From positions 4,229 to 68,228 of the forward strand of contig DASXUC010000026.1 of assembly GCA_036505015.1 (NCBI GenBank): a DNA stretch of 64,000 nt, written 5' to 3'. Made by a program: the position numbers and the translations under genes. Positions within the stretch are counted from its first letter, which is position 1; each line of letters opens with the position of its first letter. Positions 28,117-62,998 of the stretch are shown in pieces. The notes below the pieces were generated by a model. That model saw nothing but the letters and a program-made list of their open reading frames with translations. It was not told the origin of the DNA and ran no database searches. Origin of the DNA: a bacterium (GTDB taxonomy: Bacteria; Sysuimicrobiota; Sysuimicrobiia; Sysuimicrobiales; Kaftiobacteriaceae).

Positions 28117-28129
28117 GGTCCCTAACCCC

Positions 28130-28199
28130 CGTTCATCGTTCGTCGTTCGTCGTTCATCGTTCATCAACAACCAACAACCACGAACCATGAACCATGATC
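28130..28199. repeat. Ten consecutive heptads (CGTTCAT x5, then CAACAAC/CATGAAC x5), partly self-complementary
   Basis: CGTTCAT CGTTCGT CGTTCGT CGTTCAT CGTTCAT CAACAAC CAACAAC CACGAAC CATGAAC CATGATC. Confidence 0.9.
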
Positions 28200-29831: not shown

Positions 29832-29883
29832 CTATCAACTTGTCAGAACTCCTTCGATTCCTGAAGGGGTATCCCCTGCAGAA

Positions 29884-29986
29884 GCGTCTGCTCAGTCTCC
29901 ACCGTCTCCTCCGTCTGCACAGTCTGGAACCGGATCGATGTAGGCGGAGAGGACGGAGAAGACTGGGTAGACGGAGTAGACGCAGT
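29884..29986. repeat. Inverted arrays of 9-nt units (5 + 5) in the tetR-moaA divergent gap
   Basis: Left arm: GCGTCTGCT CAGTCTCCA CCGTCTCCT CCGTCTGCA CAGTCTGGA. Right arm: AGGCGGAGA GGACGGAGA AGACTGGGT AGACGGAGT AGACGCAGT, the reverse complement of the same NCTCCGTCT unit. Confidence 0.85.
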
Positions 29987-29994
29987 GCTATAAT
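29986..29994 (+). promoter_or_regulatory. Extended -10 element (TGcTATAAT) upstream of moaA
   Basis: TGC TATAAT at 29986-29994, 27 nt before the TTG start. No good -35. Sits at the edge of the 9-mer inverted array. Confidence 0.4.
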
Positions 29995-34662: not shown

Positions 34663-34745
34663 GGCCTGGGGCCTGGGATCTGGAACCGGGGATCTAGGTT
34701 GGACCTGCGCGTCACCAGTCACGAGTCACGAGTCACGAGTCACAT
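34663..34745. repeat. Two adjacent heptad arrays (GGCCTGG-type x5-6, then GTCACGA x5) in the rlmB-vanW junction
   Basis: GGCCTGG GGCCTGG GATCTGG AACCGGG GATCTAG ... GTCACCA GTCACGA GTCACGA GTCACGA GTCACAT. The rlmB stop codon lies inside the second array. Confidence 0.9.
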
Positions 34746-37112: not shown

Positions 37113-37466
37113 CTACTGGGTGTGTTCGGGAGATTCGACGGCGTCGAGGTCGGCACAGACTTCCCACTCGCGGCGCGCCCGCAGCGTCCGTGCATCCACC
37201 CGATGCCAGCGTCGGAGGTCGACGCATCCCCGATCCGTCACGACGCGCAGGAAGGCTTCACCGTGTTCGTAACGCGCCTCGACGATCTTCAGGACGCGGT
37301 GAAACTGCCCGCCGCGCCAGAAGCCGGTCACGACGGAGCGGAAGGCGCCGGGCCGATCGACTTCGACGGCGACGGGCTCGGAGATGACCGCGCGCTCTAC
37401 GAAAAGAAGGTGCGGGATTTCGACCTCGTCGCGTCGGGCATGCGGTCGCCGGTTCACCGGCGCCAT
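37113..37466 (-). CDS. Hypothetical protein
   Basis: About 117 aa from the ATG at 37466. No family recognised. The track ORF N-terminus is repeat-encoded. Confidence 0.4.
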   Translation of the reverse strand: MAPVNRRPHARRDEVEIPHLLFVERAVISEPVAVEVDRPGAFRSVVTGFWRGGQFHRVLKIVEARYEHGEAFLRVVTDRGCVDLRRWHRVDARTLRARREWEVCADLDAVESPEHTQ

Positions 37467-37475
37467 CCTTCCACT

Positions 37476-37561
37476 GGCGAACGGGGAACGGGGAACGGGG
37501 AACGCGATCCGCACGGCCGTGGCCTCGTCATCTGTTCCCTGTTCCCTGTCCCCTGTTCCCA
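37476..37561. repeat. Near-perfect inverted heptad arrays, 4 x GGGGAAC / 4 x GTTCCCY, with a 30-nt spacer
   Basis: GGCGAAC GGGGAAC GGGGAAC GGGGAAC, spacer containing the palindrome CACGGCCGTG, then GTTCCCT GTTCCCT GTCCCCT GTTCCCA. The right arm encodes the ispDF C-terminal tail. Confidence 0.9.
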
Positions 37562-38715
37562 ATCAAGGTCGCCACGGCCTGCGCGGCGATGCCTTCGTGG
37601 CGGCCGATCGCCCCCAGCCCTTCCATCGTCGTCGCCTTCAGGTTCACCGCCCGCGACGGAATGCCCAGCGCGCCGGCCAGCGCCTGGGTCATCTGCGGGA
37701 GATACGGCCCAATCATCGGCGCCTCCGCGAGGACGGTGACGTCAACGTGCGCGATCTCCCATCCCTCCGCCCCGACCGCCGAGGCCACCTCACGCAGCAG
37801 GGCGATGCTGTCGGCGCCCTCGTACGCGGCGTCGGTGGGCGGAAATCGCCTGCCGATGTCGCCCAGCCCGGCGGCACCCAGCAGCGCATCCATGACGGCG
37901 TGGGCGACGACATCGGCGTCGGAATGACCCAGCAGACCTCGCTCGCTGTCGATCACGACGCCGCCAAGCACCAGGCGCCGGCCTGCCGCAAGACGGTGCA
38001 CATCGAATCCGATCCCCGTGCGCACGGCCGCGGGGCGGTGTGCCGTGGCCAGCATGGCTTCCGCCAGCGCGAGGTCGTCGGGCACGGTGACCTTCAGGTT
38101 GAGGACGGAGTCCTCAACCATCCGCACGGGCTGTCCGCAGCGCTCGACCATCCCGGCATCGTCGGAGGCGTGCCAGCCTTCCTGCAGCGCCTGCTCGTGC
38201 GCCCGCCGCAGCAGGTGCGTGGCAAACGCTTGGGGCGTGTGGGCAATCCACAGACGATCGCGGTCCACTGTCTCGACCGCCTGGCCGCCCTCGACCAGTT
38301 TGACGGTTTGCCTGATGGGAATGCCCGCCGACGCGGCGCCGGTCTCTTGGGCCGCGGCGATGACCCGATCGACCAGGGCGGGTCGCACCAGCGGCCGGGC
38401 GCCGTCATGCACCGCAACGAGCGGCGCGGAACCGACTTCCGCCAGGCCGGAGAACACCGAGCCCTGCCGGTCGGCGCCGCCCGGAACGACGGCGCCCACT
38501 TTGCCGCAGCCGGCGGCTGAGAGCAGTGAGCGCGCCCGGGCCACGTCGTCGGTCCCCACAACGACAATGATGCGCCCGACGAGGGCGGCGGCTTCGAGGG
38601 CGCGGACCGCATGCACCAGCAGTGGGATACCGGCGAGGGTGACGAAGGCTTTGGGCCCGCGGGCCCCCAGGCGTTCCCCGCGTCCGGCGGCGACCACGAC
38701 GGCCGCAGCCGTCAT
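37528..38715 (-). CDS. ispDF: Bifunctional IspD/IspF (MEP cytidylyltransferase / MEcPP synthase)
   Basis: N-terminal VVAAGRGERLG (IspD). C-terminal GIGFDVHRL...GHSDADV...DIG (IspF). The last ~10 codons (GNRGQGTGNR) are encoded by a heptad array. Confidence 0.9.
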   Translation of the reverse strand: MTAAAVVVAAGRGERLGARGPKAFVTLAGIPLLVHAVRALEAAALVGRIIVVVGTDDVARARSLLSAAGCGKVGAVVPGGADRQGSVFSGLAEVGSAPLVAVHDGARPLVRPALVDRVIAAAQETGAASAGIPIRQTVKLVEGGQAVETVDRDRLWIAHTPQAFATHLLRRAHEQALQEGWHASDDAGMVERCGQPVRMVEDSVLNLKVTVPDDLALAEAMLATAHRPAAVRTGIGFDVHRLAAGRRLVLGGVVIDSERGLLGHSDADVVAHAVMDALLGAAGLGDIGRRFPPTDAAYEGADSIALLREVASAVGAEGWEIAHVDVTVLAEAPMIGPYLPQMTQALAGALGIPSRAVNLKATTMEGLGAIGRHEGIAAQAVATLIGNRGQGTGNR

Positions 38716-40380: not shown

Positions 40381-40388
40381 CGACGGAT

Positions 40389-40453
40389 CAGGGATTAGGG
40401 ATTGGTGAGTAGCCAGTCCCTCTCTTATTTCCTAATCCCAAATCCCCAATCCC
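40389..40453. repeat. Inverted heptad arrays (GGGATTA / TAATCCC, i.e. a CCCCAAT-type unit) filling a convergent gap
   Basis: CAGGGAT TAGGGAT TGG ... CCTAATC CCAAATC CCCAATC CC. Lies exactly between the stop of ORF 39982-40380 and the radA stop. Confidence 0.85.
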
Positions 40454-40457
40454 GTTG

Positions 40458-41813: not shown

Positions 41814-41832
41814 GCTTGCACCACCCAACTAC

Positions 41833-41981
41833 GCGATAAGAGCGATAAAGGCGATATGAAAGAACAAGGACCCGCGTGATTTCGGGCCCTCCGAACTGGA
41901 ATCTCTAGATGTGCGGCCAGCGTCGCCGTTATCGCTGTTATCGGTCTTATCGCCGTTATCGCCCTTATCGCCTTTATCGCG
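41833..41981. repeat. Inverted arrays of 9-nt units (3 x GCGATAANN / 6 x GCNNTTATC) in the clpC-radA gap
   Basis: Right arm: GCCGTTATC GCTGTTATC GGTCTTATC GCCGTTATC GCCCTTATC GCCTTTATC, abutting the clpC stop. Left arm: GCGATAAGA GCGATAAAG GCGATATGA. Confidence 0.9.
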
Positions 41982-41984
41982 TAG

Positions 41985-44438
<2,454 letters not shown>

Positions 44439-61386: not shown

Positions 61387-62909
61387 CACCCGAGCCCTCC
61401 CACGACCGCTGCCGCGGCGCCGAGGACGGCGCCGGATCGCACGAGCCCGAGTGCCGCCGCGAAGTCCCCTGCCAGCACGCGGTCCTCGTCCAGCGGCGGG
61501 ATGACCGTGCGCACCGCCGCCGCGGCCGCGCGCGTGCCCAATCCCGGCCGCAGCGGGGCATGAAAGTCCAGCGCCTGGGCGGCGCAGATCAGCTCGATCC
61601 CCGTCACCTGCTGCGCGTGCTCGAGCACCTGTGCGGCCTTGCGTGCGGCGATCGTGCCCATGCTGACATGATCTTCCTGGTTCGCCGACGTCGGGATACT
61701 GTCGACGCTGGCGGGATGGGCGAGCACCTTGTTCTCCGAGACCAGAGCCGCCACCGTGTACTGCGCCAGCATGAGCCCGGAATGTAACCCGTGCCGCTTC
61801 GTCAGAAACGGCGGGAGGCCGGAGAGATGGGGATTGACGAGGCGCTCGACCCGCCGCTCCGCGATGCCGGCCAGCTCGCTGAGCGCGATGGCGAGCACGT
61901 CGAGGGCCAGGGCCACCGGCTGGCCGTGGAAGTTGCCGCCGGAGATCATGCGGTCGTGATCCGGAAACACCAGCGGGTTGTCGGTCGCCGAGTTGATCTC
62001 GATCTCCAGAACCCCGGCGACATACGCGAGCGCATCCCGCGCCGCCCCATGGACCTGGGGAATGCACCGCAGCGCGTACGCGTCCTGCAGCTTCCGGCGT
62101 TCGGACGGGCGGGCGAGGATCTCGCTGCCGTGAATCACCCGCCGCAGATTGTCCGCGCTCACGCGCTGGCCCGGATGCGGGCGCGCCGCCTGCAGCAAGG
62201 CATCGAACGCATCGGGATTCCCCACCAACGCCTCAAACGACATCGCCCCGGCCACGTCGGCGGTGCCGGCGAGGCGGCGGGCATCATCCAATGCCAGCGC
62301 GCCGATCGCCGTCATGAGCTGCGTCCCATTGATCAGCGCCAGGCCGTCCTTGCCGGTCAGCGTCGCGGGGCGAAGCTCAGCCGCGGCCAGCGCGTCGGCA
62401 CTGGACTGCCGGCGTCCGCCGGTGAGCACTTCTCCTTCGCCGATCATCGCCAGCGCCAGGTGCGCCAGCGGCGCGAGATCGCCGCTGGCCCCGACGGAGC
62501 CCTGCGCAGGGATGACCGGTACGAGGCCCCGGTTGAGCATGTCGATCAGCAGATCCAGGGTCTGGGGTTGCACGCCGGAGAAGCCGAGGGCAAGCGCGTG
62601 GGCGCGGAGCACCATCATCGCCCGCACGACGTCTTCCGCCAGCGGCGCGCCCACCCCGGCGCTGTGGCTGCGCACGATGTTGACCTGCAGCTGGGCGGAC
62701 TGCTCGGCGGAGATCCGTTCTCCGGCGAGTTCGCCTACCCCGGTCGTGATCGCGTACACCGGGGTCCCCGCGGCGACCAGGCGATCCACCATCGCCCGCG
62801 CGCGCCCGACCCGGTCCCTGGCATGAGGAGAGAGGGCAACGACCGCCCTCTCTCTGGCCACGCTCACCACGTCCTGGATTGAGAGGTGCCCTCCTAGTTG
62901 GATGCTCAA
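61386..62909 (-). CDS. hutH: Histidine ammonia-lyase
   Basis: MIO-forming GSVGASGDL motif. Probable TTG start at 62909 (LSIQLGG...). The upstream 27 track codons are repeat-encoded. Confidence 0.9.
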
Positions 62910-62912
62910 TTC

Positions 62913-62998
62913 GGTCTCAGGTCTCAGGTCCCAGGTGTCAGGTTCTGGGGATCGGGTGTCAGGTAATTCCTGAGACCTGAAACCTGACACCTGATACC
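62913..62998. repeat. Inverted heptad arrays (GGTCTCA units x8 / TGAGACC-type x4) upstream of hutH
   Basis: GGTCTCA GGTCTCA GGTCCCA GGTGTCA GGTTCTG GGGATCG GGTGTCA GGTAATT CC TGAGACC TGAAACC TGACACC TGATACC. Same unit family as at 48863. Confidence 0.9.

Follow-up and report, generated by a model that had tools for sequence, protein, structure and literature searches.

The locus at the 3' end of ispDF raises the question of what two facing arrays of heptamers are and how they came to overlap the stop codon of a gene. It lies in a stretch of 64,000 nucleotides (the window) of a metagenome-assembled genome (MAG), here G000, of 2.85 Mb in 175 contigs, with 66.5% G+C and 8.9% contamination. Relatives are denoted G001 and so on, and contigs of G000 as C44, C104, and the like. 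A second, partial ispD (C21:7-696), only 68% identical to the ispD of the window, was found in G000; together with the contamination value, it suggests that the MAG includes contigs of a second organism.

Table 1. Features of the ispDF element, sibling hairpins of the window, and PF05635 cassettes of G000. Positions are those of the window unless a contig is named.
Feature	Position	Strand	Description
Arm A	37476..37503	.	+ strand, GGCGAAC + 3 x GGGGAAC; 3' arm in the ispDF mRNA, (GTTCCCC)3 GTTCGCC; unit that of the C44 PF05635 cassette
Loop (spacer)	37504..37532	.	29 nt, GCGATCCGCACGGCCGTGGCCTCGTCATC; holds a 10-nt palindrome and the ispDF stop
Arm B	37533..37560	.	+ strand, TGTTCCC TGTTCCC TGTCCCC TGTTCCC; 5' arm in the ispDF mRNA, (GGGAACA)-type x 4; also fits the G3N4 x 4 quadruplex motif
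ispDF	37528..38715	-	IspD + IspF/YgbB domains; stop TGA 37528-37530 inside the loop
Translated arm B	37531..37560	-	last ten ispDF codons, GNRGQGTGNR; not in orthologues without the repeat
Small downstream gene	37113..37466	-	117 aa from ATG 37466; GTG 37457 as alternative start
Heptamer sibling hairpin	28128..28199	.	CGTTCAT ... ATGAACC type
9-mer-armed sibling hairpin	29880..29990	.	GTCTNNNCN; orthologous in G001, loop different
Sibling hairpin	40382..40454	.	(GGGATTA)n ... (TAATCCC)n; between convergent genes
9-mer-armed sibling hairpin	41828..41985	.	GCGATAANN; between clpC and radA
Heptamer sibling hairpin	62909..62998	.	GGTCTCA ... CCTGAAA/TGAGACC type
C44 cassette	gene C44:24082-24396		arms (GGGAACR)4 / (CTGTTCS)4; unit that of the ispDF element
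C104 cassette			arms GTTGGTC / GACCAAC
C171 cassette			arms of 8-mers
C118 cassette (pseudogene)			arms of 9-mers

Structure of the Element at the End of ispDF

On the + strand, four GGSGAAC units are followed by the spacer and by four TGTYCCC units (Table 1). An earlier note on this DNA had described four heptamers facing four others, and direct reading bears this out; both arrays were also scored by Tandem Repeats Finder (TRF; period 7, 3.7 and 4.1 copies, scores 52 and 51). The same note called the arms almost perfectly complementary, which was slightly generous. The terminal inverted repeats, 28 nt each, form a stem of about 28 bp, in which 22 of 27 positions in the best register are Watson-Crick pairs and five are mismatches, three of them wobble pairs. 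Those three fall on the seventh base of the unit, which gives G.T on the + strand. On the ispDF mRNA strand they become A.C, and most heptads of the stem carry this mismatch there.

The RNA of positions 37460-37575 on the - strand, the sense strand of ispDF, folded at -60.5 kcal/mol (z = -4.65), and none of 200 shuffled sequences was as stable. The antisense RNA of the element folded better than the ispDF-sense RNA (-53.7 vs -48.7 kcal/mol). The spacer measures 29 nt and not 30 nt, as had been stated, whereas the location of the ispDF stop codon within it was given correctly. The palindrome noted in the spacer is present as well (CACGGCCGTG, at 37512-37521), but its significance did not hold: the loop had no excess self-structure (z = +0.48), and the palindrome is therefore probably due to chance. 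An Rfam search of the element returned nothing at gathering score, only sub-threshold matches to generic hairpins (miRNA precursors).

The IspDF Tail and the Downstream Gene

The last ten or so residues of IspDF had been taken for the translated right arm of the repeat, and the tail is indeed read from the heptads (Table 1). IspDF has 395 residues, and its YgbB/IspF domain extends to residue 384. Among 23 IspDF orthologues of the same order, 13 terminate two to five residues past ...AVATL, and 21 are without the G/N/R/Q tail, which was confined to G000 and G001; these are both of the genomes with GGGAACA heptads at the ispDF junction. Thus, the tail of nine or ten residues is translated repeat, a by-product of the insertion without meaning of its own.

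A small gene (114-117 aa) is conserved directly downstream of ispDF across the whole order (23 genomes). It carries the conserved motif LLFVERA...EVDRP...GFWR...KIVE and matched no Pfam or NCBIfam family. The suspicion that the left arm inflates the N-terminus of this ORF proved justified: the six-frame ORF 37113-37562 is artificially extended at its start by arm A, and the true start is either the ATG, which is the JGI call, or the GTG, which aligns with the ATG of G001. A Shine-Dalgarno-like GGAAGGA at 37468-37474 lies two bases from the element.

The ispDF Junction in Related Genomes

G003 belongs to the same genus as G000, with about 80% DNA identity in long blocks and in the flanks. Its IspDF ends in ...ATLIG*, and only CTAGCCC separates the flanks CTGATYGG and AGGATGGCG, versus about 89 nt in G000. 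At the same junction of G014, the mapped flanks are 0 nt apart, i.e., there is no insert. The element is thus an insertion relative to an empty site. In G001, the junction has the identical 4 + 4 heptads, including the non-complementary seventh base, and the 29-nt loop has diverged. Other inserts at this place are a hairpin with 9-mer arms in G008, a degenerate array in G016, and a lone GTGAATG x4 array in G005 and in G011. Because the junctions are empty or differently filled, the site must have been hit several times, by different units, within one bacterial family. The proposal of the earlier note that the element was inserted or generated at a gene junction, the reading-frame end being captured secondarily, is supported by the empty site of G003 together with the orthologue tails, and the look at the same junction in relatives agrees with it: G003 (7 nt) and G014 (0 nt) are empty, and other relatives carry other arrays.

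G000 is closer to G003 than to G001; either the element was cleanly lost in G003, or it was gained independently at the same spot in G000 and G001. A JGI contig encoding CysS carries a junction identical to that of the window, with one mismatch in 5.3 kb, and is therefore uninformative about polymorphism. When metagenome contigs were scanned for exact words from the 3' end of ispDF, eight chance matches in unrelated genes were obtained.

A Family of Tandem-Armed Hairpins in G000

At equal stringency, 113 arrays of period 7, 62 of period 8, and 34 of period 9 were counted in G000, versus 0-3 for periods of 5, 6, 10, 11, and 13. Altogether there were 534 arrays with at least three units, 74 short hairpins, and 36 unit families. 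Four units were the commonest arm length (102 of 158 arms), and the G-rich arm was the 5' one in 61 of 72 hairpins, with polarity fixed within unit families. According to the crude GC3-based caller behind the context statistics, 50 of the 74 hairpins touch the stop of a called gene or sit within 80 nt of it, usually no more than about 10 nt away. In about 14 hairpins the stop is at least 13 nt deep within the element; therefore, tails of translated repeat are common. The ispDF element shows the same pattern, with two inverted arrays in the 7-9-nt range, about four units per arm, the G-rich arm 5', and an abutting stop, and it belongs to this family. Its unit and polarity recur at at least seven loci and in one gene-bearing cassette. 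Matches to GGGAAC arrays numbered 59 in G000, 213 in G001, 20 in G003, and 159 in G005, with about zero elsewhere, and the reversed-pattern control gave 0.

A T-rich tail was present in only 2 of 45 hairpins, and the better fold was that of the sense RNA in 19 hairpins and of the antisense RNA in 25 (p = 0.43), i.e., there was no strand bias. Thus, the hairpins are not terminators, and no selection on the sense-strand RNA is visible. Loops were unique to each locus, and arms were shared between loci. The only loop sharing across the hairpins was between C63:43-70 and C76:1718-1745, which are identical as reverse complements; both lie near contig ends and therefore probably represent one locus assembled twice. 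The loops in general showed no excess self-structure (mean z = -0.29, p = 0.45), and the idea that arms extend a pre-existing small hairpin was rejected on this ground, the hairpin between clpC and radA alone enclosing an ancestral one. In 12 of the 74 hairpins, including the ispDF element, a position is uniform within each arm yet non-pairing between the arms; the comparison of within-arm and between-arm similarity is biased by array detection and is used descriptively only. The 8-mer hairpins C116:63661-63789, C88:36114-36189, and C156:18877-18973 combine arms of (GGGAACGC)4 and (GCGATCCC)4, with an A.A or T.T mismatch in every unit, so that the arms are internally uniform and non-complementary.

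Sibling hairpins also occur within the window (Table 1). The one between convergent genes is orthologous in G003, where its loop is homologous, and absent in G014. At the clpC-radA hairpin, all units of both arms in G003 read GGGATAANN; every unit thus has GCGATAA in G000 versus GGGATAA in G003, a concerted, compensatory one-base change (L093). The loop of this hairpin holds an ancestral GC hairpin (GGCCCGG..CCGGGCC), which is armless in G014 (L078) and accompanied by a one-sided 8-mer array in G008 (L089). In addition, an unpaired GTCACGA array at 34711-34743 has 4.7 units in G000 and 2 in G003, and GATTCAC x2 is found there in G001; thus, both the unit number and the unit variant change at one orthologous site.

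PF05635 Cassettes and Their Arms

Five PF05635 genes ("23S rRNA intervening-sequence protein," TIGR02436) were identified in G000, and four of them lie in the loops of tandem-armed hairpins (Table 1); besides PF05635, no other cargo genes were found in the hairpin loops of G000. The arm unit of the C44 cassette is identical to that of the ispDF element. This cassette is itself an insertion: its site is empty in G002 and G003, where the flanking ABC-2 permease genes overlap by ATGA. At the permease-permease junction of G008 (L195, G008:C194, ~1330-1490), an insert of about 150-190 nt has nested ordinary inverted repeats (GTCATTGCGAGG...CCTCGCAATGAC) and no tandem arrays; therefore, the tight junction at the C44 site attracts another kind of hairpin, too. 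The fifth, divergent PF05635-like gene of G000 (C116:3177-3476, 42.6 bits) has no flanking arrays, and weak array-less PF05635 matches were also obtained in G009 and G017.

PF05635 was detected in 14 of 31 relatives, all of one family, and 23 of the 25 PF05635 loci of relatives lay between inverted arrays with periods of 7, 8, or 9, spaced 414-613 nt apart. Among named public genomes from many phyla, at least 44 of 80 PF05635 loci were bracketed by inverted arrays. In syntenic DNA around ispDF, no arrays were found in 190 kb from 10 relatives without a cassette-type gene, versus 27 in 148 kb from 8 relatives with one (P = 2e-10). G005 has many GGGAAC arrays, and no cognate cassette was found in this MAG, which is 86% complete.

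In a tree of 28 PF05635 proteins, the grouping followed the arm core. The clades correspond to the cores GGGAxx (including C44), GTTGRA, GTCGC 8-mers, TCTAC 9-mers, and GGGAARA, and the cores in the clade of C44 are GGGAAC, GGGATC, GGGACT, GGGATA, and GCGATA. The C44 protein comprises 133 aa, and among solved structures Xanthomonas XCC0516 (2GSC) is its nearest relative; in each of the PDB matches 2GSC and 2RLD, the matched chain is present five times. In the literature, we found no paper linking heptamer arrays in general to PF05635 genes.

Proposed Origin of the ispDF Element

The ispDF element is likely a copy, lacking a gene, from a family of IVS-type hairpin cassettes whose full form carries PF05635. 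Each arm in the family is a tandem array of about four 7-, 8-, or 9-nt units, and the full form holds the gene for a PF05635/TIGR02436 four-helix bundle in its loop, which measures about 0.45 kb. Most likely, a copy with GGGAACR arms entered the very tight junction between ispDF and the small ORF in the lineage of G000 and G001. With this insertion the original ispDF stop was lost, so that translation of ispDF continues for nine or ten codons along one arm to the TGA of the loop, and the ribosome-binding site of the small downstream gene was spared. An RNase III gene (rnc) is encoded in G000, and the imperfect stem of about 28 bp on a polycistronic mRNA may be a substrate of the resident enzyme, by analogy with the IVS of Coxiella. 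In that case, the host would tolerate the element as a site of processing or stability and would not need it.

The cognate four-helix-bundle protein may recognise the repeat units, which would explain the upkeep of arms with a fixed unit, a fixed polarity, and about four units. The covariation of protein clades with arms is also expected from co-inheritance; for this reason, binding of the unit is something that we infer. New copies probably do not arise by copy-and-paste of the whole element. The unique loops, the arms of about four units, the uniform non-pairing positions, and the concerted change at clpC-radA suggest that what is propagated and homogenised in the element is its arms. No PF00078 match was found in G000, G001, G003, G005, G008, or G013; because array-rich genomes are thus without this domain, the idea that the G-rich arms stem from a reverse transcriptase of the telomerase or DGR type was rejected. 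Nor did the ispDF loop show similarity to the interior of the resident cassettes above that of shuffled controls. The model in which the loop is a remnant of a cassette interior was dropped for this reason and, since loops are not shared either, descent of the element from the C44 cassette by deletion is not demonstrable.

We tentatively extend this reading to PF05635 proteins and inverted arrays of about four 7-9-nt units in general. It is possible, though doubtful at present, that they form one widespread propagating system that operates with neither a transposase nor a reverse transcriptase, its arms, rather than the whole element, being written and kept at tight gene junctions. In such a system the loops would be local or idiosyncratic, each arm would be homogenised internally, and the 5' position would always fall to the G-rich arm. 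Among the long simple-sequence repeats of bacteria, tandem heptanucleotides are the most common, and, to our knowledge, the function and spread of rRNA intervening sequences and of the very large PF05635/TIGR02436 family have been unexplained for about 30 years. If true, such a system, in which the arms are written, would account for the bacterial excess of heptanucleotides, for STRR and the heptamer pairs of Xanthomonas, and for how rRNA intervening sequences originated. The ispDF junction and its relatives offer a clean comparative system, in which the site is empty in some genomes and occupied by one or another type of unit in others. Since arrays occur only where the gene is present and arm units track protein clades, the partnership of protein and repeat is directly testable. 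For annotation, about a quarter of the genes beside such hairpins bear C-terminal or apparent N-terminal extensions of mere translated repeat. The ispDF locus is supporting evidence for this class of hairpins and not its first sighting.

Alternative Explanations

The alternative that survives best is control at the RNA level by the host, i.e., a site of RNase III processing or mRNA stability, kept by selection, through which ispDF would be uncoupled from the small gene and cysS. The strong fold (z = -4.65) would suit such a site, as would the conservation in G001 of the arms, including their arm-specific seventh base, though the loop diverged. The arms also co-vary between species at other junctions, and RNase III, which is present in G000, cuts the stem of the Coxiella IVS. 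However, most relatives have no insert, or about 7 nt only, at the ispDF junction; sense RNA lacks a folding bias (19 vs 25 hairpins, p = 0.43); the sense strand of the ispDF element carries A.C mismatches; and non-complementary positions are systematic in 12 of 74 hairpins. We consider this explanation unlikely, and a role in host control would be compatible with an origin as a selfish insert.

An ordinary simple-sequence repeat is far less probable. Here, a short seed would have grown by local replication slippage, the inverted partner would have arisen by chance or by hairpin-templated repair, and PF05635 would be unrelated. Work cited in PMC4679880 ascribes to polymerase slippage the heptanucleotide repeats that are over-represented in many bacterial genomes, and the array at 34711 does differ in copy number (x4.7 in G000 vs x2 in G003). 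Slippage does not account for a unit and polarity that recur at at least seven loci and in a gene-bearing cassette, for a copy number that peaks at 4 rather than decaying, for the fixed polarity (G-rich arm 5' in 61 of 72 hairpins), or for the absence of arrays in relatives without the PF05635 gene. A G-quadruplex element must be regarded as very improbable, too. The (GGGAACA)4 of the ispDF sense strand fits G3N4G3N4G3N4G3 and resembles the GGGAATC repeats that form quadruplexes in Xanthomonas (PMC4692102), but most unit families of G000 (GTGAATC, GTTGGTC, GTGACTC, GCGATAA, and others) have no G-runs, so that a quadruplex cannot be the common principle, and the complementary arm competes for pairing.

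There is little to recommend a REP/REPIN- or MITE-type element moved by a RAYT or an IS-encoded transposase, even though the hairpins are intergenic, palindromic, and dispersed in families and G000 has one Y1_Tnp gene (C89:31180-31509). That gene is flanked by other palindromes (GTGACAGTCAC) and not by tandem arrays, and the RAYT/REP model was rejected on this basis. Copy-and-paste of the MITE kind was rejected because loops are unshared except in one contig-end pair and no target duplication was seen at two pairs of empty and filled sites (the ispDF element and the C44 cassette). The element is not a REP/RAYT element, a MITE, or part of a DGR. A Rho-independent terminator or attenuator at the end of ispDF is the least credible candidate. 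In its favour is the GC-rich stem-loop directly at the 3' end of the gene; however, the element has no U-tract after the stem on either strand (with a T-rich tail in only 2 of 45 family members), sits within an operon-like string two bases from the Shine-Dalgarno sequence of the next gene, and has no counterpart hairpin at the ispDF junction of relatives; an intrinsic terminator it is not.

Comparison With Known Repeat Systems

As a gene-less relative of PF05635 cassettes, the ispDF element invites comparison with the rRNA intervening sequences. In Coxiella burnetii, the 23S IVS (helix 45) has a 28-bp stem with 3-4 tandem heptamers (GACAGAT) before the S23p ORF; the number of heptamers varies between strains, RNase III cuts in the stem, and the IVS is regarded as selfish, with its mode of spread unexplained (PMC4990558). 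The ispDF element shares with it the terminal inverted repeats, the stem of about 28 bp (4 x 7), and the tandem heptamers, which in Coxiella are on the 5' side, and its full-form siblings (C44, C104, C171, and C118) carry a PF05635 gene in a loop of about 0.4 kb. Unlike the Coxiella IVS, it lies between protein-coding cistrons and not in helix 25 or 45 of 23S rRNA, and the G000 family also uses 8- and 9-mers. No 23S gene was found in the G000 MAG. The 29-nt loop of the ispDF copy contains no PF05635/S23p ORF; therefore, this copy was classed as a gene-less relative and not as a full IVS.

In Xanthomonas and Nostoc, arrays of G-rich heptamers are numerous and frequently form convergent pairs directly behind ORFs; they were studied as quadruplex-forming simple-sequence repeats, with about 70 heptamer pairs in X. 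campestris (Rehm et al., PMC4692102). The ispDF element resembles the Xanthomonas (GGGAATC) and Nostoc repeats in having tandem G-rich heptamers that are intergenic, near the stop of the upstream ORF, and often in inverted pairs. Whereas the reports on those genera treat simple-sequence repeats and quadruplexes and link no protein gene, in G000 the link with the PF05635 cassette is established. The STRR heptamers of cyanobacteria, reportedly described by Mazel et al. in 1990, are likewise tandem heptanucleotides in intergenic DNA. STRR1-3 units are those of heterocystous cyanobacteria, whereas the unit of the ispDF element is GGGAACR and relatives of G000 are deposited as "Bacillati bacterium ANGP1," "Armatimonadota bacterium," or MAGs.

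The cassette protein is distantly related to the DGR accessory protein Avd (PF22296, NF033474), with 25 bits to bAvd and 28 bits to the Avd equivalog. These scores are far below the Avd cut-offs, no reverse transcriptase was found in six genomes, and template or variable repeats are absent. Similarly to REP/BIME/REPIN sequences with their RAYT, the hairpins are short intergenic palindromes at gene 3' ends that are tied to a single-copy, repeat-flanked protein gene. They differ in that the partner, a four-helix bundle of about 120 aa, has no known catalytic domain and is not a Y1 transposase, that the arms are tandem arrays, and that loops are not conserved between copies. The sole Y1_Tnp gene of G000 (IS200/RAYT-type, PF01797) has three copies of the palindrome GGTGACAGTCACC upstream, which are possibly REP-like sites of that gene itself, unrelated to the tandem-armed hairpins.
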